DNA of 30,445 bases from Patescibacteria group bacterium. Lineage in GTDB: Bacteria; Patescibacteriota; Saccharimonadia; Saccharimonadales; DATIHS01. Shown piece after piece: positions 20,289 through 29,365 of the stretch; position 1 is the first letter of the stretch; each line of letters starts with the position of its first letter. Below the pieces are notes generated by a model that was given only the letters and a program-made list of their open reading frames with translations, was not told the DNA's origin and made no database searches. The position numbers were made by a program, and so were the translations under genes. The DNA lies in the NCBI GenBank assembly GCA_035480475.1, contig DATIHS010000016.1:1-30445 (forward strand). Reading direction: 5' to 3'.

Positions 20289-20317
20289 ACTCTACCATAT
20301 GCAGGTATAAATGTCAA
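20289..20317 (-). promoter_or_regulatory. Sigma70 promoter TTGACA-17-TAGAGT for the surface-protein operon
   Basis: Perfect -35 at 20312-20317; -10 at 20289-20294 with a TG extension. Confidence 0.65.
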
Positions 20318-20445
20318 TACTTATGACCACATTTCAAGTTAAAGCACAAGCACTTTACACCTTGGGGCGGCAAAAGCGTCTCAATAACAGCTAGTATGCG
20401 CTGCTCAGTATTTCAGGCTGTGAAGTTTCTTACACTTTACGAAAG

Positions 20446-21870
20446 CTAGTTCGTAGGGGCAGAGGTGGGCGGTTGCAATTTTGACTTGTCAAAGCTAAAA
20501 CCAAAGGTACTTCCCGCCCCTTCCTGACTCTTGAAGATAATGCTGCCGCCTTGGGCGACGATAACTTTTTTGGCCATAAACAGGCCGAGCCCGGTGCCAT
20601 CCGGCCGCGCTTTGCGGGCATTGCCAGCGCGGTAGAACTTCGTAAACAGGTGGTGTTGTTCTGCTTTTGGTACACCTAAGCCGTCGTCGGTCACGGTGTA
20701 TTCAATGGTTTTATCGGTTTCACGTATACCAACAACAATATGCCCCCCGGTCGGCGTGTAATAAATGGCGTTGTCCATAAAGTTCATAATCACCTGCCGG
20801 ATCTTAGTTTCGTCCAGCATAACCGACGGGAACTTGGCCGGCTTTTCATAAGATAGCTTCAAGCCACGGGCCTGGGCGGTCTCTTGTAACTGATTGACTT
20901 CACTTTCGACAACATCGGCCAGGTTAGTGGCAACGGCCTCAATCACGAACTTGCCGGTTCGCAAACGCGATACGTTCAAGAGGTCGGCAATCAAATACAC
21001 CATGCGTTGGCTACTGGCAAACGCCTGGCTCAGCAGCTTACGCTGCATTTCGCTAATCTCGCCCGCATCCCCTTCGAGCACCATACTCAAGTAGCCTTTC
21101 ACAGAGGTCAGCGGCGTCCGCAACTGGTGCGAGGCCATGCTGATGAACTCGTCCTTCGTTTCATCCATCGTCTTCAGCTTCTCATTCGTCTTTTGCAGCT
21201 GCCGCAACACTTGCTGGTTCTCCTCAAACAGGAGCTTGTTGTCCAACGCAATCCCCACGACTTCGGCCAGACGGTCCAACAAGGCTTTTTCCTTTTCGGT
21301 AATCTCATTGATGGGTTCTGTGAAACCAACAGCCATCAAGCCAACCAGGCGGTGACGAGATAATAGTTTCATAATTGCAATTGATTTAAGGGGTATAACC
21401 TGGCGCAAAGCTGCCACATCATCAACACTGTCGTGTAGTAAATGAGCTATAAAGTTGTCACTTAACTGTGTTACGTCAATAATTGCGGTACGCTCGGGAC
21501 TTACGATCCATTTGTCATGGTCGTCAAGCTCTACCCGGTAGCGATCTACTTCCGGTAGTCCTTCGAACGAGCTTGCCCACCCCATGAGTTCCAGGAAATC
21601 CTTGTGCGGTGGGTTAGCCATAATGGCCACCAAAGGAAAGCTGGATTTCTCAATAATAGCTTGGGCAATGTTTTGGCAAAGCACCTCCAGCTCGTCGTGT
21701 GATTCCAAAGTAAGGTTATCGATCGTCCGTAACAGAGATAGAGTACGATTAATATCCGCCAGCTCCAGGTTACGCTTGTACATTTCCTGGGTAAGTTGAG
21801 CAACATCAACCTCAAGTCGCTTCTTTTTACTACCAAAAACGGTTTTAAGGTGTGTTCTTTGTTTGTCCAC
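20446..21870 (-). CDS. Cytoplasmic sensor histidine kinase (GAF-like + HisKA + HATPase_c)
   Basis: EFISMASHQLRTPLT H-box, NFMDNAIYYT N-box, DDGLGV G1, FTKFYR F-box, GTGLGL G2; no TM segment. Confidence 0.93.
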   Translation of the reverse strand: MDKQRTHLKTVFGSKKKRLEVDVAQLTQEMYKRNLELADINRTLSLLRTIDNLTLESHDELEVLCQNIAQAIIEKSSFPLVAIMANPPHKDFLELMGWASSFEGLPEVDRYRVELDDHDKWIVSPERTAIIDVTQLSDNFIAHLLHDSVDDVAALRQVIPLKSIAIMKLLSRHRLVGLMAVGFTEPINEITEKEKALLDRLAEVVGIALDNKLLFEENQQVLRQLQKTNEKLKTMDETKDEFISMASHQLRTPLTSVKGYLSMVLEGDAGEISEMQRKLLSQAFASSQRMVYLIADLLNVSRLRTGKFVIEAVATNLADVVESEVNQLQETAQARGLKLSYEKPAKFPSVMLDETKIRQVIMNFMDNAIYYTPTGGHIVVGIRETDKTIEYTVTDDGLGVPKAEQHHLFTKFYRAGNARKARPDGTGLGLFMAKKVIVAQGGSIIFKSQEGAGSTFGFSFDKSKLQPPTSAPTN

Positions 21871-21896
21871 CCCATGTCCTTGTGGTTAGGGTCATC

Positions 21897-22178
21897 TTAT
21901 TTCAAAAGGTCAGGTAATTCTTCAGGTTTAAGCTTATTTGCCAAAGATGCAACAGCTTCTTTGCTAGCTTCAACAGCAATTTGACCAAAGAGATCACGAT
22001 AAGCTTCAATCAATTCTTCAACAGCTTCTTTTTCGTCGCCCACGATAGAAACTGTATGATTAGCCCAATCAACTGATATTCCATCTACTTGTTGTGCTTG
22101 TTGTACAGCAACTGGACCAATTATCAATTCTTGTTGGGAAATGATACGTATAGCAATTTGCACATAAATATCCATCAC
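21897..22178 (-). CDS. Small conserved-looking hypothetical protein (93 aa)
   Basis: Clean ORF coupled to the upstream gene (4-nt overlap) and lying directly before the kinase. Confidence 0.75.
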   Translation of the reverse strand: MMDIYVQIAIRIISQQELIIGPVAVQQAQQVDGISVDWANHTVSIVGDEKEAVEELIEAYRDLFGQIAVEASKEAVASLANKLKPEELPDLLK

Positions 22179-23014
22179 GCCACTCCTGGTTGTACCGGTT
22201 TTATGCGCGTAGTGTTTGGTGTTGAACAGAAACCCATAAGTCCAAAGGTCATAAAGAATAGCCCAGCCGTAAGTACTAAGTCACCCCAGTCTCCGTTGTA
22301 AAAAGTGCCGACAGTTGTTGTATACGAAAAGATGAAGTCGCCAAAATACATTACTGCTAGTCCAACCAATATGCACACCATAGACCAGCGGTAGACACCA
22401 CCAAGGAATTTAAATGATAAACCTAGGATAACTGTAGCAAGTGTTAGGCTCATGACATCTCCGAAGGGATAGGCAATATCTAGAAAGACTTTGAGTGGCG
22501 TTTCGCCTGCTGGTACGAGCACACCTTGTCTGGCGACAGTTACTAACAGGTAATAAGATACAGCGAGCACCAAAATAGGTATAGTGACAACGAGTACTTT
22601 CATAATTGGCTTACGCAAACCATACTTTGCACCTGAAGCCCTAGAAAGATTAATGGCACCAATTGCCCAAAAGACAATACTAAGTGCAAAGCCAATATCC
22701 GCGATTGAGGGATATGGTGCTGCAATTTTCGGTACAAAATTGTAATAAGACCACACCATACTACCCGCTCCCCAAAGGAAAAGACCTAGTCCAAAGTAAA
22801 ACACACTTCGCCCAAGGGCACTATGTAAACGACCCCAGATACTTGATTTAAGAATACCGACAAAACCACCTATGAGAGGTACAAGGCTGAACAGAAACGA
22901 ATAAAAGAAATTGAAATTAGTAGTTGTTTTGCCACTCAAATGTAGCCAAATCCAGTAAATTAGTATAAGAACCAGGTAACCAGCAAAAGCCTTTTGAAAT
23001 TTATTTCTAAGCAT
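22175..23014 (-). CDS. Polytopic membrane protein, possible stand-alone 7-8TM sensor domain
   Basis: About 8 hydrophobic helices; WSYYN...PYPSIADIGF and DIAYPFGD motifs, reminiscent of N-terminal membrane sensor modules. Confidence 0.8.
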   Translation of the reverse strand: MLRNKFQKAFAGYLVLILIYWIWLHLSGKTTTNFNFFYSFLFSLVPLIGGFVGILKSSIWGRLHSALGRSVFYFGLGLFLWGAGSMVWSYYNFVPKIAAPYPSIADIGFALSIVFWAIGAINLSRASGAKYGLRKPIMKVLVVTIPILVLAVSYYLLVTVARQGVLVPAGETPLKVFLDIAYPFGDVMSLTLATVILGLSFKFLGGVYRWSMVCILVGLAVMYFGDFIFSYTTTVGTFYNGDWGDLVLTAGLFFMTFGLMGFCSTPNTTRIKPVQPGVA

Positions 23015-23022
23015 TTGTTTAA

Positions 23023-23051
23023 ACCATAAGGTTTTTGAGCAATATTGTCAA
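23023..23051 (-). promoter_or_regulatory. Promoter TTGACA-17-TATGGT, 8 nt before ATG 23014
   Basis: -35 at 23046-23051; -10 at 23023-23028. Confidence 0.65.
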
Positions 23052-23162
23052 TTGACCGGGCTGTGTACGCTGTTGAAAGCAATTTGCGGAGGTTTATTAT
23101 ATGTGTTAAATTAGAGATAATAAAAGTAAAACAAAACACAAGAGTAAATTAGTTAATTTTTT

Positions 23163-23828
23163 ATGAATACAATTACGACTCGTACTGCCATTGGCTTTCC
23201 CGAACGGAAGGAAGAATGGAATGAAGCTCCTGCACGTTTTACGGAACATACACTTCGTATTGCTGGTCACCCGGTAATGGAAGATTGGGAAGCCAATTAC
23301 ATGGATAAGCTGGCAGAAATTGCTGCTAGTAAGGGTGGAGCAGTATTGGAATTGGGGTATGGTCTGGGGCTTTCATCAGCCGCAATTCAGACCCGTGGCG
23401 TTGACGCTCACTTCATTATTGAATGCCATCCTGATGTGGTTACACGTAGCATTCAGGATTTACATGAGGGTATTCAGGCTAGTCGTGTCCACATCCTTAG
23501 TGGCTTTTGGCAAGACATTACACCTCGATTGCGAGCGGAAAGTTTTGATGGCATTCTTTTTGATACCTACCCCCTGAATGAGGAGGAAATTCATGGTAAT
23601 CATTTCTGGTTTTTTGATGAAGCATTTCGGTTATTGCGACCTGGTGGCGTTTTAACCTACTACTCAGATGAAGTTGACCGTTTCTCAGAAAAACACCTTG
23701 CCAAGCTCGAAGCTGCTGGCTTTCAACGAGAAAACATCGATTTCGAAATTGTCTCTGTTAATCCACCACCAGACTGTGAGTATTGGGAGGCCAATACTAT
23801 TCTGGCACCTATTGTGCATAAAACTTAG
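23163..23828 (+). CDS. Class I SAM methyltransferase, guanidinoacetate N-methyltransferase (GAMT)/Rmt2-like
   Basis: LRIAGHPVMEDWE..YM, KGGAVLELGYGLG, HFIIECH, FDGILFDTYPL, AFRLLRPGGVLTY, EAAGFQRENI, PPPDCEYW; collinear with recalled human GAMT motifs. Confidence 0.85.
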   Translation: MNTITTRTAIGFPERKEEWNEAPARFTEHTLRIAGHPVMEDWEANYMDKLAEIAASKGGAVLELGYGLGLSSAAIQTRGVDAHFIIECHPDVVTRSIQDLHEGIQASRVHILSGFWQDITPRLRAESFDGILFDTYPLNEEEIHGNHFWFFDEAFRLLRPGGVLTYYSDEVDRFSEKHLAKLEAAGFQRENIDFEIVSVNPPPDCEYWEANTILAPIVHKT

Positions 23829-24952
23829 AGTTGTGTGGTTCTCGGTGTAGGAAAACCGTTAAATTTAGTAGTCAATGTAAAAGTGTAGGCGCCCACGTCT
23901 GAGATAACGAGTTTTTCGCCTAGAGCGAGATCCACAGGTAGTTGAATGGCTTTATTTACTATATCTATGTTGTCACCGGTTGGACCAGTAAGAATATAGT
24001 TTTGTAATTCAATATTGGGATGTTCGAGTAATGGTATGACTTTATATTGGGTACGGCCCTGGAAAGCCATGGCTTCGAATAACGCATTGTATACTCCTGC
24101 GTCAATGTAAAGCCATTCGCCATTTGATCTAACGCTTCGTTCAATCACACTGGTCACTAATACGAAAGCATTTGCAACCAGTCCACGCCCTGGTTCTGCA
24201 ATAAATTTTAAAGGGTAAGGCACAGTTAATACCGAGCTGCGTATACTCGCGCCAATTTCTTCAATGGAAGGAATAGCATCAGCAGGTTGATAACTGAACG
24301 GAAAACCACCCCCAAAATTTATCATTTCCACTTTAATACCGTCTGACTCAAGAACCTTTAGGATAGAAACTACATCCTTAATCCCTCTTGCCCAACCATC
24401 TTTATTACGTGCTTGTGAGCCAACATTAAAACTAATACCATAAGGTAGAAGTCCAAGAATTTTAGCTTTTCTCATTAGCTCAACTGCATTCTTTAGCTGT
24501 GTACCAAATTTTTCTGACATATGAAATACACTGTTGGCTCGGTCGTCAACAAGAGCTCGTACATAGACTTTGGAGCCAGGTGCATATAAGGCAAGTTTTT
24601 CTAGTTCGTGCTCTGAATCAAAAGCAAAACGAGAAACACCATATTTTACAAAATACTTAATGTGTTCTACGGGCTTTACAGATGTACCGTAAAGAATTTT
24701 CGAGGCGTCTACCTTAATTGGCTTGAGAAGGGCTAGCTCATACTTTGAGGCCACTTCAAAACTTGAACCTATACTATTTAGAGTTTGCAGGACCTCTTTT
24801 TCAGAATTGGCTTTCATCGCATAACAGATTTCTGTATTTGATGGTAATTCCTTCAGATATCGATGATAATTTTCTTCTAGTTGCTTTCTATCAAAGACAA
24901 AAAAAGGTGTCTTATTGTTCAATCTGCGTATTGCCTCTTTATAATTTGTCAT
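23825..24952 (-). CDS. Fold-type III PLP enzyme, ornithine/lysine/arginine decarboxylase family with altered active site
   Basis: TPFFVFD, YAMKAN (PLP Lys), FEVAS, FGGGF, EPGRGL, GAYT; but FNVGSQ and GPTGD instead of FHVGSQ and GPTCD. Confidence 0.88.
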   Translation of the reverse strand: MTNYKEAIRRLNNKTPFFVFDRKQLEENYHRYLKELPSNTEICYAMKANSEKEVLQTLNSIGSSFEVASKYELALLKPIKVDASKILYGTSVKPVEHIKYFVKYGVSRFAFDSEHELEKLALYAPGSKVYVRALVDDRANSVFHMSEKFGTQLKNAVELMRKAKILGLLPYGISFNVGSQARNKDGWARGIKDVVSILKVLESDGIKVEMINFGGGFPFSYQPADAIPSIEEIGASIRSSVLTVPYPLKFIAEPGRGLVANAFVLVTSVIERSVRSNGEWLYIDAGVYNALFEAMAFQGRTQYKVIPLLEHPNIELQNYILTGPTGDNIDIVNKAIQLPVDLALGEKLVISDVGAYTFTLTTKFNGFPTPRTTQL

Positions 24953-24956
24953 CTGT

Positions 24957-25841
24957 TTAGGATACCGACAATAGTACTATGCCTGCAAGGATAGTAATTG
25001 AAGCAAGTGCTTGTAGCGGGGAAACTCTTTCATTTAGAAATGTCCTTGCTAGGATAATTGTAGGGATTGAAAACGTTGCTGCCAATACAGTGACGATTGC
25101 AGTGTGCGGAGTTGCGCTAAAGCCATATGAAACAGACGCAAAAGCAAAGACATCAAATACACCGATCCCTATGAGATATTTCCACATTTTGTGTCCTCTT
25201 ATGAAGAGTTTACGACCGGACAAGACAGCATATAAAAAGAGTGTGATGGCAGAAAAGACCCTGATACCGAGGAGAAAAGGCACCCAATTGCGTCCATTTA
25301 GAAAACGATCAAGTGCTATTAACCAGAAAGAATAGCTAACTGTTGCGACTAGAATATAATTCAAACCATCAGTTTTGTGTCTACTATGACCTTTTAATAG
25401 TTTGAAGAGATCTAGCGGATTGGTGCTTACCAGTAAAATGCCGCAAAAGACAATAACAATAGCTAATTGTTGCATATTTGTTAATTGCTCATGGAATACG
25501 CTTGCTGAAATAAGTGCAACTATTGCTGCATAGGAAGCAAATATTGGGCTCAAAAGACTCAGTTTGCCTTTTCCAAAAGCAATGTAGGCTGGAATATAAG
25601 ACAAGCCACTATAAACACCTAAGAGAATTACTTTCAAAGTGTCATGAGAATGAGTTGGTGTATGGGGGTGGTAAGCAATAATTAGTACTATCAGTGGGAA
25701 GATCCCTATAAGTTGACCCCAAAATAATGTGGTAACATCACCAATTTTATCGATCGTTTTTTTAGCAAAAAAGTCAGCAGTACCCCAACCAAGCATTCCA
25801 CCTAGGCCTGCAAGCATAGCAACGAGCAAATCGTGGGGCAT
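24957..25841 (-). CDS. EamA/DMT family transporter
   Basis: 294 aa, about 10 TM in two repeats; LLSPIFASY, ARTFLNERVS..QAL. Confidence 0.88.
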   Translation of the reverse strand: MPHDLLVAMLAGLGGMLGWGTADFFAKKTIDKIGDVTTLFWGQLIGIFPLIVLIIAYHPHTPTHSHDTLKVILLGVYSGLSYIPAYIAFGKGKLSLLSPIFASYAAIVALISASVFHEQLTNMQQLAIVIVFCGILLVSTNPLDLFKLLKGHSRHKTDGLNYILVATVSYSFWLIALDRFLNGRNWVPFLLGIRVFSAITLFLYAVLSGRKLFIRGHKMWKYLIGIGVFDVFAFASVSYGFSATPHTAIVTVLAATFSIPTIILARTFLNERVSPLQALASITILAGIVLLSVS

Positions 25842-25883
25842 TTTTTTCCTATCTACTACAAGTATTATATGCGCTTGTATGTA

Positions 25884-25911
25884 AATATAGCTAGATCAAA
25901 TCAGTTGTCAA
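25884..25911 (-). promoter_or_regulatory. Promoter TTGACA-16-TATATT for eamA and the decarboxylase-like gene
   Basis: -35 at 25906-25911 (inside the last codons of the GreA-like ORF); -10 at 25884-25889. Confidence 0.55.
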
Positions 25912-26140
25912 AATCGATAACTATTAACTTGTTTATTTTCCCTTTCAAAAGATATCTTCTTTCTTCATTAATGGTTGCTCCCAGTAATGCAATTCCCACT
26001 GGACTTTGCGAAGATACAACGCCTGTTTCAAATTCCGGATTATGCATGACTTTAAGTTTTCTAAGAGCCCCGTTTTGAAAACGCACCCAGACCCAAATAT
26101 TAGTGGATACTTTTTGCTTTATTCTATTGCTTGTACTCAT
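25901..26140 (-). CDS. GreA/GreB/Rnk C-terminal-domain-only protein (79 aa)
   Basis: VSSQSPVGIALLG matches the ISxxSPxGxALLG signature; no N-terminal coiled coil; own promoter 6 nt before the ATG. Confidence 0.7.
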   Translation of the reverse strand: MSTSNRIKQKVSTNIWVWVRFQNGALRKLKVMHNPEFETGVVSSQSPVGIALLGATINEERRYLLKGKINKLIVIDFDN

Positions 26141-26146
26141 ACTTGC

Positions 26147-26174
26147 AGAATAAGATAGGCATATTTGTTGTCAA
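26147..26174 (-). promoter_or_regulatory. Promoter TTGACA-16-TATTCT, leaderless, for the GreA-C-only gene
   Basis: -35 at 26169-26174; -10 at 26147-26152; overlapped by the imperfect palindrome TTGTTGTC-AATA-GATAACAA. Confidence 0.6.
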
Positions 26175-26237
26175 TAGATAACAACAATCTTAGAATATAG
26201 ATATTGGATTTGTTGCAATGTGCTAACAGGAGTAAAT

Positions 26238-27134
26238 ATGGACACAATAAGTGATGTACTTATAGAACTTGGTCTAAGTCATCGAGAAGCTAGTACATAT
26301 CTGGCTTTATTAGAGTTGGATTTAACAAGTGTGAGTCAAATTTCAAGGCACACTGGGATTAACCGTAGTACTACATATGTGGTACTCAATTCATTAGAAA
26401 AAATGAATCTGGTTAAGGTAGCCGACGACAGAAAGGTCCGAAAATATATGGGGGTATCACCGGATATGCTGTTAGCAAATATGAAGAAAGTAACTGATTC
26501 ACAAGCAAAACGACAGACCGAGCTCGAAGAAATAATGCCTAAACTAAGGGCAATCTATAAAGACACGAGTCACAAACCACTGATTAAAATATATGAAGGT
26601 AAAAAAGGACTCTGGCAAACCTATACCGATGTATTTGAGTCGGGGGTAAAAGAATTCTGGGTCTGTGAAGACCTAACCAACATCTTAAAAATATTTCCTG
26701 AGTTTGTGGAATATGATGCAACGCAAAGGCTTATGAAAGGAATTAGTATCTGTTCAATTTCACCTGCAAAGAAAGCAGATATAAAACTTTGCTCGGGTGG
26801 TCCTTGTATAAATACAGAAGAGATCGCTTTTATACCGCCTGAAATGTTTACTTCTCCTGTGGATATAACCATCTATGGCGACCGAGTGGCGTTTGCATCG
26901 TCAAAAGATTTATTTGGAGTTACTATTGAACATCCGGAAATTGCCACTGCGTTGAAATCAATTTTCGATTTAGCATTTGCAGAAGCAAGGCAGCTTGATA
27001 GAAAATTAAATATCCCTTTAGAGCCTGTCGATCATTTCACGACTCCAGATGATAAAACAAAAATGCCCGCATTGTTAAAAGAACTGAAGAAGAGCTTTGA
27101 ACGAATTAATCAACGTCTTGAATCTGAGGGGTAA
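26238..27134 (+). CDS. TrmB family transcriptional regulator
   Basis: LIELGLSHREASTYLALL...ISRHTGINRSTTYVVLNSLEKMNLV HTH; IKIYEGKKG; DITIYGDRVAF; SD AGGAG before ATG 26238. Confidence 0.88.
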   Translation: MDTISDVLIELGLSHREASTYLALLELDLTSVSQISRHTGINRSTTYVVLNSLEKMNLVKVADDRKVRKYMGVSPDMLLANMKKVTDSQAKRQTELEEIMPKLRAIYKDTSHKPLIKIYEGKKGLWQTYTDVFESGVKEFWVCEDLTNILKIFPEFVEYDATQRLMKGISICSISPAKKADIKLCSGGPCINTEEIAFIPPEMFTSPVDITIYGDRVAFASSKDLFGVTIEHPEIATALKSIFDLAFAEARQLDRKLNIPLEPVDHFTTPDDKTKMPALLKELKKSFERINQRLESEG

Positions 27135-27180
27135 GCTGAAATCGCTTTTGTGGGAGCGGCAATAAGTATAAGATAGAGTC

Positions 27181-27579
27181 ATGGTAAAAATTGTCCTGGT
27201 TGAAGATGACAAAATGCTGGCGGAAATTTACCAGACGCGCCTGCAACTGGCTGGGCATGACTGTAAAGTGGCGAATGATGGTTTGAGCGGGTTGGCGCTG
27301 ATTAAGGAAGAGAAGCCTGATTTAGTCCTACTTGATCTGATGTTGCCCTACCTGTCTGGCGATGGTATTTTGCGTGAGATGCGCAAAAACGACTGGGGTA
27401 AACACACCAAAGCTATCTTTTTGACGAATATTAGTGAGTCTGAGGCACCGGAAGGCCTCGAGAAGCTCGGCTTTGAGCGCTACATTGTGAAGGCCAACCT
27501 GGTCAATAACGAATTAGCGGAAGTGGTGGACACTACGCTGGGCCAAAAGCCAGCTACAGATGCACCTGCGACCGCCTAG
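27181..27579 (+). CDS. Stand-alone response regulator receiver
   Basis: LVEDD, LLDLMLP (phospho-Asp), LTN, IVKA; no output domain. Confidence 0.93.
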   Translation: MVKIVLVEDDKMLAEIYQTRLQLAGHDCKVANDGLSGLALIKEEKPDLVLLDLMLPYLSGDGILREMRKNDWGKHTKAIFLTNISESEAPEGLEKLGFERYIVKANLVNNELAEVVDTTLGQKPATDAPATA

Positions 27580-27627
27580 GCAAGAAATAATTGTGCTCTT
27601 ATGAGACTTTTTAGTACACTTTAAACT

Positions 27628-27999
27628 ATGCCACGCGTTGCCATAGTTGAAGACGACCAAGCAATTTCCCAGATGTACCGGATCAAATTCGAGGCGGAAG
27701 GCTTTGAGGTTGAAACGGCCGAAAACGGCAAACTCGGTTTAGAGCTGGCCGAAAAGATGAAACCAGATATTATTTTGCTCGACCTCATGATGCCAGAGAT
27801 GACCGGTGATGCCATGCTGAAAGAGATGCGCAAGACCGACTGGGGTAAAGACATCAAGGTGATTATTTTGACCAACATGGGCGAACAAGAGGCACCCGCT
27901 GAGCTCAAGGAGTTGGGCGCCAAACGGTTTATTGTGAAGGCAGAAATGACCCCCCGCCAAGTGGCCGAGATGGTCAAAACCGAGCTGGACGCCAAGTAA
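27628..27999 (+). CDS. Stand-alone response regulator receiver (paralogue of the upstream gene)
   Basis: IVEDD, LLDLMMP, LTN, IVKA; shares EMRK.DWGK with 27181-27579. Confidence 0.93.
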   Translation: MPRVAIVEDDQAISQMYRIKFEAEGFEVETAENGKLGLELAEKMKPDIILLDLMMPEMTGDAMLKEMRKTDWGKDIKVIILTNMGEQEAPAELKELGAKRFIVKAEMTPRQVAEMVKTELDAK

Positions 28000-28009
28000 A
28001 CTTGTAATC

Positions 28010-29365
28010 ATGCAAGACCAGTTTAGTTTTAAGCAGTTCCGGGTGAGCGATGACCGGCGTGAGGTCTTTTTTGATTACGAATTGGGCCACAACAGTCAAA
28101 CCTACGGTTTGACCGAGTCCCTGCGGTTTCCGGTACCCCTGTTGGATACACCTGCGCAACAGCGCAGTTTGCGAGCGCTGCACATAGCCCTTGGCATTAG
28201 TTATTACAAGATATTTCTACCTGCGTCTATGGCACATCCTTATGCCATGGATGAACCAGAGGCCGATTTTTGGAATGATGTCTGGCAGCATGGTTTGGGG
28301 GAATTTTTATACGTCAATAAGGTTTCGAGTGACCGTCTGGCGCGCTTTAGCCAACAAGATGGGCAGACGTTTGAACCGCCAGCTGCGGATGCACAGGCCA
28401 GCGGTGCCCTGCTTGGCATTGGCGGGGGCAAAGATTCAATTGTGGCTGGTGAACTTTTGAAAGCCCTGGATGTGCCGTTTGACGGTTTTGTCATGGCCAC
28501 GGGAGAACAACTGGGGCAGACCGGCCAGGTGGCCGAGACGATGCAAGTACCACTACATGCCGTTGGACGACAGCTGGATAAACAGCTGCTGGAGCTACAA
28601 ACTGAGCCGGGTGCCATGCAAGGTCACGTACCTATTTCACTTATTTTCGGGTTGGTTGGCACCGCCTTGGCCGTAGCGCTGGCAAAACGCTATGTGGTGG
28701 TTGCCAACGAGGCCAGTGCAAGCATGCCCCAAGTTGATTGGAATGACGTGGCCGTAAACCACCAATGGAGCAAGTCCTTCGGTTTTGAGCGTTCGTTGCA
28801 GGCATCCATCCAAAAATATATTGCCCCGCAGGTTTGCTACTTCAGTGCCATTCGTCAATTGACATCTGTTGGAGTCGCTAAGATATTTAGCAATTACCCC
28901 GCTTACTTTGAGGTCTTTACCAGCGATAATTTTGTTTTTCGGATAGATCCTGCCAAGCGCCCGGCGGGTCGTTGGAGCTTAGAAAGCCCCAAAAGCCTGA
29001 GCAGCTACATCCTGTTGGCGCCTTGGCTAGACAATGAGTCTGTCCAACGGATCTTTGGCCTGGATTTCTTAAACCAGGCGAGTCTGAAACCCCTGTTTTT
29101 GTCGCTCATGGGTGTGGAAGGGGAACCACCGCTCGATTGCGTTGGGACTGTTCCCGAACTAGTGTTGTCGTTAAACTTGCTCGCCCAGGCTGACCGCTAC
29201 GGCAATACTGTGCTTATGCAATTAGCTAAGGAAAACTGTGTTATTGTGCAAAAAGACTGGCAGGCAGAGCTGGCGGCTATGCTCGAGTTGCAGCCCGAAC
29301 AAGCTTTGCCTTCTGAACTTCAAGACGGCGTCCTGCAATTTTTGCAAGCTAGGTTGGCCCAATGA
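28010..29365 (+). CDS. murL: UDP-MurNAc-L-Ala-L-Glu epimerase
   Basis: PP-loop-like GGGKDS, GHVPIS, NEASAS, VNHQWSKS..FE, DCVG; overlaps the downstream murD (ATGA). Confidence 0.8.
   Translation: MQDQFSFKQFRVSDDRREVFFDYELGHNSQTYGLTESLRFPVPLLDTPAQQRSLRALHIALGISYYKIFLPASMAHPYAMDEPEADFWNDVWQHGLGEFLYVNKVSSDRLARFSQQDGQTFEPPAADAQASGALLGIGGGKDSIVAGELLKALDVPFDGFVMATGEQLGQTGQVAETMQVPLHAVGRQLDKQLLELQTEPGAMQGHVPISLIFGLVGTALAVALAKRYVVVANEASASMPQVDWNDVAVNHQWSKSFGFERSLQASIQKYIAPQVCYFSAIRQLTSVGVAKIFSNYPAYFEVFTSDNFVFRIDPAKRPAGRWSLESPKSLSSYILLAPWLDNESVQRIFGLDFLNQASLKPLFLSLMGVEGEPPLDCVGTVPELVLSLNLLAQADRYGNTVLMQLAKENCVIVQKDWQAELAAMLELQPEQALPSELQDGVLQFLQARLAQ

Follow-up and report, generated by a model that had tools for sequence, protein, structure and literature searches.

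The window analysed here is a stretch of 30,445 nucleotides that forms contig 16 of a Patescibacteria group bacterium assembly (GCA_035480475.1), and it carries a methyltransferase related to animal guanidinoacetate N-methyltransferase (GAMT) beside a variant pyridoxal-phosphate (PLP) decarboxylase, an EamA-family transporter and a two-component sensor. Our main finding is that the decarboxylase and the transporter belong to a widespread operon to which GAMT has been added. The ancestral unit, found across Saccharibacteria and other candidate phyla radiation (CPR) bacteria, comprises EamA-decarboxylase-c6-c8-GAF kinase with receivers alongside, where c6 and c8 denote two proteins without a Pfam family; in this lineage the GAMT gene separates the decarboxylase from c6 and is oriented opposite to both. 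We therefore considered a model in which the methyltransferase, decarboxylase and transporter form the enzymatic half of a larger sensor-linked unit that would make and export a methylated guanidino-amine, and we give this model roughly even chances. A sequence-only reading had described positions 23163-27134 as a five-gene cassette comprising the methyltransferase, the decarboxylase, the exporter, a protein with only the GreA C-terminal domain (GreA-C) and a TrmB regulator. All five of these open reading frames (ORFs) exist according to the ORF listing and family scans; that interval leaves out the most constant partners of the decarboxylase and exporter, namely c6, c8 and the histidine kinase on the left and two receivers on the right.

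The assembly comprises 691 kb in 103 contigs and is 86% complete. For the genes studied, the nearest homologues bear the labels Candidatus Saccharibacteria or Saccharimonadales, and genomes of this order measure 0.5-1.6 Mb, so it is reasonable to suppose that the organism is biosynthetically reduced and probably episymbiotic.

Results

Conservation of the gene neighbourhood

Neighbours were clustered in 80 loci with GAMT homologues, one genome per species, using simple longest-ORF gene calls; the counts include related, non-independent genomes. Among the 14 GAMT homologues nearest to the window protein (57-65% identity), 13 have the decarboxylase as immediate neighbour and the fourteenth lies at a contig end; the pair occurs in convergent, divergent and co-directional orders. 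An EamA gene is present in 5/80 loci, four of these being among the five loci of context A, and a c6-type membrane protein of 270-310 residues and a c8 protein of about 93 residues are present in 7/80 and 6/80, respectively. The logic of two enzymes and an exporter that the sequence-only reading had proposed is thus borne out, and the neighbourhood search that it had suggested recovers GAMT, the decarboxylase and EamA together; GreA-C and TrmB do not recur with them.

Genomes of the same order were sampled at three depths: 60 families for comparison with GAMT-less relatives, 200 genomes for the GreA-C ORF and 400 genomes for a census of GAMT and the decarboxylase. None of the 60 sampled families yielded a GAMT homologue. 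In four GAMT-less relatives (G056, G039, G053 and G027) EamA, decarboxylase, c6, c8 and kinase follow one another on one strand, with a receiver gene divergent from EamA, and the same five-gene operon recurs around decarboxylase homologues in two contigs of other CPR lineages. Across the census the decarboxylase family is found in 34/400 genomes and GAMT in 3/400. One other full-length GAMT was seen there, in G103, where it lies about 30 bp from a decarboxylase that is the closest relative of the window enzyme in the 400-genome sample. Given the GAMT-less operons and these frequencies, the decarboxylase and exporter are primarily partners of c6, c8 and the kinase, with GAMT as a rare addition.

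In about 15 loci an AdoMet_dc-like pyruvoyl protein stands beside GAMT instead of the PLP decarboxylase, sometimes fused to GAMT, and the ESH processing motif is intact in 12/15 of these proteins. Such loci also hold genes for a GNAT and a 7TM-GAF kinase, preceded by an OmpR-type regulator, and in L037 and L029 the pyruvoyl enzyme replaces the PLP decarboxylase within the c6-c8-kinase frame. Since two unrelated decarboxylase folds occupy the same place, amino-acid decarboxylation is likely to be a required step. The exporters that repeatedly accompany GAMT homologues are of three kinds, namely EamA, an EamA-like protein and LysE.

Other arrangements were seen in the same survey. The saccharibacterial locus L037 (5480-11117) represents a richer version of the pathway, in which c6, c8 and kinase are joined by an LPG_synthase_C-like protein (aminoacyl-lipid synthase type), a methyltransferase of the NNMT/PNMT/TEMT family, GAMT and the AdoMet_dc-like protein. 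A fourth GAMT context (L045, L070 and about 12 more loci, from Bdellovibrionales, Magasanikbacteria and others) has no decarboxylase nearby and consists of a protein of 150-200 residues, an EamA-like transporter, a GARS-like ATP-grasp ligase, GAMT and a 7TM histidine kinase. At L100 (95-4476; Andersenbacteria-like) the five-gene operon is preceded by an amino-acid ABC importer of the branched-chain type and by a MazG-like gene, and its kinase is succeeded by a second GAF kinase. Otherwise Saccharibacteria-typical cassettes occur in L004, labelled as an uncultured gammaproteobacterium, and in L015 (Tepidisphaerales); L004, at 38% GC, has the full order kinase-c8-c6-GAMT-decarboxylase-EamA, and both suggest mis-binning or transfer across phyla.

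The GAMT-like methyltransferase

The gene at 23163-23828 (+) encodes a predicted S-adenosylmethionine (SAM)-dependent guanidino N-methyltransferase of the GAMT family, in a short form of 221 residues. Human GAMT (3orh) matches it with an E value of 1.9e-47 over residues 17-220 and rat GAMT with 4.6e-45 over nearly its whole length, and its precomputed Pfam family is PF27704 (GuanidinoAc_N-MeTrfase). The glycine-rich motif of class I SAM enzymes is present (VLELGYGLG, aligned with VLEVGFGMA), and G65, G67 and G69 are invariant across 29 homologues. The residue pair that binds and deprotonates the guanidino group is also kept, E43 (in the WE motif) and D134 (in the DTYP motif) aligning with rat E45 and D134, and both residues are invariant in the homologues. 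The catalytic role of Asp134 in GAMT has been described (PMC12842229). Mean column identity within the family is 61%, the decarboxylase-linked members form one well-supported clade in the GAMT tree (98/92), and homologues carry the JGI label 'guanidinoacetate N-methyltransferase'.

By sequence the protein thus does belong to the GAMT family, but it lacks two features needed for creatine synthesis. The whole short family shares a 13-residue deletion relative to GAMT in the loop after the GGVLTY strand, which we take to be the part that binds the carboxylate of guanidinoacetate (through the backbone of L170/T171 in the rat enzyme); Komoto et al. reportedly described in 2004 a loop that holds this carboxylate in GAMT. 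In addition, no gene of the amidinotransferase and arginine deiminase (ADI) family (PF02274) was found in the 86%-complete genome. With both lacking, creatine synthesis is unlikely, in keeping with what had been proposed from the sequence.

The distribution of GAMT homologues centres on host-dependent or predatory lineages (CPR bacteria, DPANN archaea, Bdellovibrionales, Rickettsiales and Coxiellaceae), and a few actinomycetes (Streptoalloteichus, Streptomyces) also hold them. A 234-residue short-form homologue that is 60% identical to the window protein (P0107) is recorded from the fungus Cladobotryum mycophilum; it sits on a 7.6-Mb contig and represents either interkingdom transfer or a mislabelled sequence.

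The variant decarboxylase

Converging on the methyltransferase gene is that for a 375-residue PLP decarboxylase of the alanine racemase fold (group IV) at 23825-24952 (-). As had been noticed at the outset, the two genes share the four bases 23825-23828, where C-TTAG provides the stop TAG on the plus strand and TAA on the minus strand. The decarboxylase, which is single-copy in the genome, matches Orn_Arg_deC_N (E 2.2e-47) and Orn_DAP_Arg_deC (E 4.2e-14) with 162 and 53 bits against curated cut-offs of about 23, and its best solved relatives are the Selenomonas lysine/ornithine decarboxylase (5gjm, 3e-47) and eukaryotic ornithine decarboxylases (ODCs). It falls below all NCBIfam equivalog cut-offs, lysA coming closest (180 vs 298 bits) and DokD, nspC and speA lying far below.

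The description of this enzyme as modified proved correct. Mapped on the alignment and numbering of mouse ODC, it retains 17 of the 20 ODC residues that PMC5518511 lists as critical, counting as kept a Glu in place of D88, and it differs at H197 (Asn), D332 (Gln, residue 298 of the window enzyme) and C360 (Gly). Conservation was counted in the 120 nearest homologues. The PLP lysine is present in 119/120, E274, R277, D361, D364 and Y389 are invariant, and the GGG phosphate loop and the F397 equivalent are invariant or nearly so. Gln occupies the D332 position in 120/120, the H197 position holds N in 81 and H in 37 with other residues in the rest (Asn, His or Tyr within the clade), and the C360 position holds G in 103 and C in 16; His and Cys never occur together (0/120). 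The enzymes of GAMT-less relatives combine H or Y with G, and the distant decarboxylases of the second GAMT context have kept both His and Cys, yet still carry Gln at the D332 position. Far from a decaying gene, this is a selected clade of PLP-binding enzymes whose substrate pocket and proton-donor site have been remodelled.

The exporter, the GreA-C ORF and TrmB

Upstream of the decarboxylase, a position conserved in relatives, lies the gene for an EamA/DMT-family membrane transporter (24957-25841, -), presumably an exporter co-transcribed with the decarboxylase. It has two EamA repeats (E 5.5e-28, 98 bits) and eight hydrophobic segments, and a strong promoter-like site precedes it at 25911-25884(-).

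The two remaining genes named in the sequence-only reading fared differently. The 79-residue ORF at 25901-26140 (-) does resemble the C-terminal domain of GreA/GreB, as had been stated, with a marginal score (26.8 bits vs a cut-off of 26.9); the N-terminal coiled coil of GreA/GreB is lacking. It was found in 0/80 GAMT loci and, among the 200 order genomes, in this genome only plus one borderline match, so it cannot be counted as a member of the cassette and is best regarded as species-specific. The TrmB-family gene at 26220-27134 (+; TrmB HTH E 5.2e-14) is listed from a GTG at 26220, and the likelier start is the ATG at 26238, which is preceded by AGGAG at the usual spacing; public gene calls give 298 residues. 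It scores 33 bits against cut-offs of 500-650 for the sugar-sensing TrmB equivalog that includes the C-terminal sugar-binding domain. TrmB is absent from the syntenic loci: in L006, L007 and G027 EamA abuts a receiver gene, L007 reading EamA, receiver genes and then MurL. Its proposed standing as regulator of the cassette is therefore not upheld by synteny, but its residues 16-263 match the N-terminal part of a TrmB-c6 fusion protein (32% identity, E 3e-30), and because a whole-length homologue occurs fused to the c6 domain a local regulatory role stays plausible. We consider TrmB a lineage-specific insertion and a possible local regulator. It may serve as the transcriptional output that receiver-only regulators lack.

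Promoter- and terminator-like sites are no more frequent than expected by chance, several of them being placed sensibly upstream of genes. A repeat search in two intergenic regions gave no convincing operator, and no Rfam family, guanidine riboswitches included, matched within 20300-28100. TrmB-like genes (22-25% identical) also lie 1-7 kb from a GAMT homologue in L027, L030 and L050, from Nanoarchaeota and a 'Methanosarcinales' bin, which may be chance given that TrmB is common in archaea.

A putative split membrane sensor kinase

To the left of the methyltransferase, c6, c8 and the kinase are encoded on the minus strand. The kinase (20446-21870; 474 residues; GC 0.50, the native value) has HisKA (9.7e-17) and HATPase_c (2.9e-24) domains and a weak GAF match, without any transmembrane (TM) or hydrophobic segment. 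c8 (21897-22178) is a soluble protein of 93 residues that adjoins c6 in seven loci and in five order relatives; its AlphaFold2 (AF2) model is a small helical/β protein (pLDDT 95), and co-conservation and fusions suggest a partner or adaptor of c6. c6 (22175-23014) has 279 residues and eight TM helices in its AF2 model (pLDDT 89.5). The c6 and GAMT-like genes diverge from an intergenic region (23015-23162) that has promoter-like hexamers on both strands, at +23073-23100 and -23051-23023, in numbers not above chance for the region.

A c6 profile search returned 2,724 representative clusters at E<=1e-3, and fusions were examined among the best 150 representatives (proteins P0365-P0514), in which c6 also occurs as a stand-alone domain. 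Eighteen of the 150 carry c8 at the C-terminus of c6; in one of these proteins, P0385, the C-terminal part is 35% identical to the window c8 (E 5e-18). The same set holds one c6-PAS-HisKA-HATPase protein, two TrmB-c6 proteins, several NB-ARC STAND NTPase-c6 proteins and one c6-c8-MazG-like fusion. Because of this pattern of fusion to kinase, TrmB, STAND and c8 we take c6 to be a probable signal-input domain, and it looks like an undescribed and widely reused one located in the membrane. Together, c6, c8 and the soluble kinase can be read as a split membrane sensor kinase.

On the right, receiver-only response regulators of 132 residues (27181-27579, +; native GC; Response_reg 1.8e-17) and 123 residues (27628-27999, +; Response_reg) lie directly one after the other. 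A HisKA and HATPase_c kinase and receiver proteins are therefore both present, as in a two-component system, and neither single-domain receiver has a DNA-binding output domain. In L006 and L037, too, the cassette has a pair of receivers at its flank.

Composition and apparent import of the block

The AT-rich block that the sequence-only reading had placed at 23163-27134 is real and sharply bounded in GC and GC3 (GC at third codon positions), but it begins at 21897 and so includes two more genes. From c8 to TrmB (21897-27134) GC is 0.36-0.45 and GC3 0.19-0.36, compared with about 0.50 and 0.55-0.65 in the flanking kinase, receivers and MurL and a genome mean GC of 0.492; the block is the lowest-GC 5-kb window of the genome, and the left-hand step lies exactly at the kinase/c8 boundary, the right-hand one exactly at that of TrmB with the first receiver.

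Similarity is incongruent across these boundaries. The kinase is 70% identical to its counterpart in the GAMT-less relative G027 and at most 55% to those of GAMT-bearing loci, and the first receiver is 78% identical to the one beside the EamA-decarboxylase operon of G027 and at most 46% to those of GAMT-bearing loci. The decarboxylase is 44-47% identical to those of GAMT-less relatives vs 55-61% for GAMT-bearing loci, and EamA 36-40% vs 49-53%. Composition and incongruent similarity together point to replacement between a native kinase and native receivers: the c8-c6-GAMT-decarboxylase-EamA segment, with the GreA-C-like ORF and TrmB, would have been imported from a lower-GC relative in place of a resident copy. 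The cassettes of L006 and L007 are not deviant in composition, and the GAMT-decarboxylase pair is AT-shifted in four loci of the second context.

Discussion

The simplest reading of the pathway would run from arginine through agmatine to N-methylagmatine and export. The decarboxylase would convert a scavenged basic amino acid, most likely arginine, to its amine (agmatine), the GAMT-like enzyme would methylate a guanidino nitrogen using SAM, and EamA would export the resulting N-methylagmatine-like product. The c6/c8/kinase sensor may then detect the compound or its precursor and signal through the single-domain receivers, with TrmB possibly providing the transcriptional output in this species. 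The amine N-methyltransferase of the NNMT/PNMT type that L037 adds fits a substrate bearing both an amine and a guanidino group. The genome has metK; AdoMet_dc, spermidine synthase, arginase/agmatinase and agmatine deiminase were not found in the 86%-complete assembly, nor were homologues of the GNAT, ATP-grasp and other accessory genes of the other GAMT contexts.

Several observations weigh against this pathway and its proposed link to sensing. The substrate, the order of the two reactions and the product are all inferred from sequence, as is any effect on a host. The equivalents of the ODC-critical H197, D332 and C360 are missing, and because Gln is invariant at the D332 position the substrate may differ from a standard basic amino acid and the reaction from a plain decarboxylation. 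Co-transcription of c6 with the pathway genes does not show that the product is sensed; c6 also occurs without the decarboxylase, for example in G012. Structural comparison of the c6 model with the PDB gave no significant relative, only generic GPCR-like bundles (E >= 3.6e-3, TM-score <= 0.44), and that of c8 gave nothing significant, with N-terminal halves of H-NOX proteins at E > 1 and a TM-score of about 0.5. The idea that c6 is a detached sensor region of the HisKA_7TM type seen in GAMT-flanking kinases was rejected (hhalign probability 0.7%). Finally, the genes not found here were sought in an incomplete assembly, in which not found does not equate to absent.

These points need to be set against the alternatives, all of which we rate lower than a sensor-linked methylation pathway. 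A housekeeping role, in which the enzyme supplies putrescine, cadaverine or agmatine for the organism's own ribosomes and nucleic acids and its neighbours are only loosely related, could draw on the fact that this is the sole polyamine-type enzyme found in the genome and that its closest solved relatives are lysine/ornithine decarboxylase and eukaryotic ODC. A gene present in only 34/400 order genomes can have no core function, however, and the fixed operon partnership with an exporter and sensor kinase, the invariantly altered D332 substrate residue and the linked guanidino methyltransferase all make such a role unlikely. If the decarboxylase were instead a catalytically inactive protein with a regulatory or binding role, like antizyme inhibitor among the relatives of ODC, the change of three of the 20 critical residues would be accounted for. 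The conservation of the PLP lysine, GGG loop, E274, R277, D361, D364, Y389 and F397 across 120 homologues speaks against this, as does the fact that a pyruvoyl decarboxylase that looks active takes the place of the enzyme within the same frame, and we judge such a role very unlikely. The presence of decarboxylase, membrane proteins and sensor in one operon might also recall decarboxylation-antiport for pH homeostasis or energy, in the manner of AdiA/AdiC or CadA/CadB-CadC, with the amino acid entering and the amine leaving through EamA or c6 and the consumption of protons building up a gradient under control of the sensor; an organism that lives by fermentation and has few sources of energy might benefit. 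Using up SAM on methylation of the product would make no sense for energy gain, though, and c6 acts as a sensor domain in fusions rather than as a transporter. Moreover, the known acid-resistance decarboxylases have the aspartate aminotransferase fold and work with APC-family antiporters, whereas EamA/DMT proteins are known as exporters, which leaves antiport as an improbable explanation.

The methyltransferase invites two further alternatives. Yeast Rmt2, a member of the same superfamily, methylates protein arginine, and the guanidino-binding residues of the window protein would fit peptidyl arginine equally, in which case its adjacency to a decarboxylase would be incidental. Its repeated coupling to two unrelated decarboxylase folds, including fusions, and to exporters and acyltransferases renders this highly doubtful. 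True creatine synthesis from guanidinoacetate could appeal to the strong similarity to GAMT and to the JGI label of the homologues, but given the deleted loop and the failure to find an amidinotransferase in the 86%-complete genome we attach next to no weight to it, and to our knowledge no creatine-using genes exist in such organisms. There is also the question of where the unit ends. That GAMT, decarboxylase, EamA, GreA-C and TrmB form a mini-cluster complete in itself is suggested by their adjacency and common AT-rich composition, by the divergence of TrmB from the GreA-C/EamA/decarboxylase strand with promoter-like sites between, and by the TrmB-c6 fusion, which ties this type of TrmB to the cassette sensor. 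Such a cluster omits c6, c8, kinase and receivers, and the failure of GreA-C and TrmB to recur in other loci likewise counts against it, so that we regard it as quite improbable. A sensor-linked unit centred on the ancestral operon remains our preferred interpretation.

If that interpretation holds, one might go further and imagine a self-contained small-molecule signalling system of ultra-small episymbionts, in which a methylated guanidino-amine made from scavenged arginine is exported by EamA and read by c6/c8, the kinase and the receivers, the c6 domain having been recruited elsewhere by TrmB regulators and STAND NTPases. We offer this extension tentatively, as a minority possibility. Since biosynthesis is almost lacking in Saccharibacteria and other CPR bacteria, a small molecule that is conserved, exported and possibly sensed would be a rare handle on how they communicate with each other or with their hosts. 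The system also bears on the function of the bacterial and archaeal GAMT family and on the origin of the animal creatine enzyme. The decarboxylase clade indicates that the 'essential' His197, Asp332 and Cys360 of ODC can be replaced under purifying selection, raising a question of mechanism and substrate, and c6 may represent a new input module, located in the membrane, that serves kinases, transcription factors and STAND NTPases. A search of the literature on bacterial GAMT, methylagmatine and GAMT in CPR bacteria found no description of the system, and the Journal of Biological Chemistry papers on the decarboxylases do not mention the GAMT link. What is new here is the GAMT-less ancestral operon, the c6/c8 sensor fusions, the invariant D332Q change, the link between TrmB and c6 and the apparent cassette replacement.

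Comparison with known systems

Each part of the cassette resembles a known system while differing from it in ways that may be informative. Vertebrate GAMT (EC 2.1.1.2; PDB 3orh, 1xcj, 1khh) is homologous over the whole catalytic domain and shares the SAM motif and the guanidino Glu/Asp pair; the window protein is about 15 residues shorter, with the 13-residue loop deletion, and is coupled to decarboxylases, exporters and sensor kinases rather than to an amidinotransferase. The decarboxylase has the same two-domain fold as the Selenomonas lysine/ornithine decarboxylase (5gjm), mouse ODC (7odc) and the chlorella virus arginine decarboxylase (2nv9), and shares with ODC-type enzymes the 17 of 20 critical residues that include the PLP lysine; unlike them, it has Asn, Gln and Gly in place of H197, D332 and C360.

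AdoMetDC homologues that act as arginine or ornithine decarboxylases are established (SpeDA and SpeDC; PMC10407285). Pyruvoyl enzymes of this kind hold the place of the PLP decarboxylase beside GAMT in other loci, but their fold is unrelated to that of the window enzyme and they were not found in this genome. That bacteria can N-methylate a free guanidino group of the arginine type, and can use N-methylagmatine as a natural building block, is known from the arginine N-methyltransferase SznE and from saskemycin with its N-methylagmatine units (PMC12637814). The genes concerned are part of large antibiotic clusters of actinomycetes, in contrast to the sensor-linked three-gene cassette described here. 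We also believe SznE to be a different type of methyltransferase from the GAMT-like protein.

In its organisation the cassette recalls autoinducer operons such as staphylococcal agrBDCA, in which a maker, an exporter, a membrane sensor kinase and a response regulator are encoded together. The gene content fits such a maker-exporter-sensor arrangement, in which the kinase would respond to the operon's own product, although the agr system uses a peptide signal and its components show no sequence relationship to those of the cassette. CadABC and AdiAC, as inducible decarboxylase and antiporter systems, likewise encode a decarboxylase, a membrane transporter and a sensor together, but they use another decarboxylase fold and another transporter family and have no methyltransferase.

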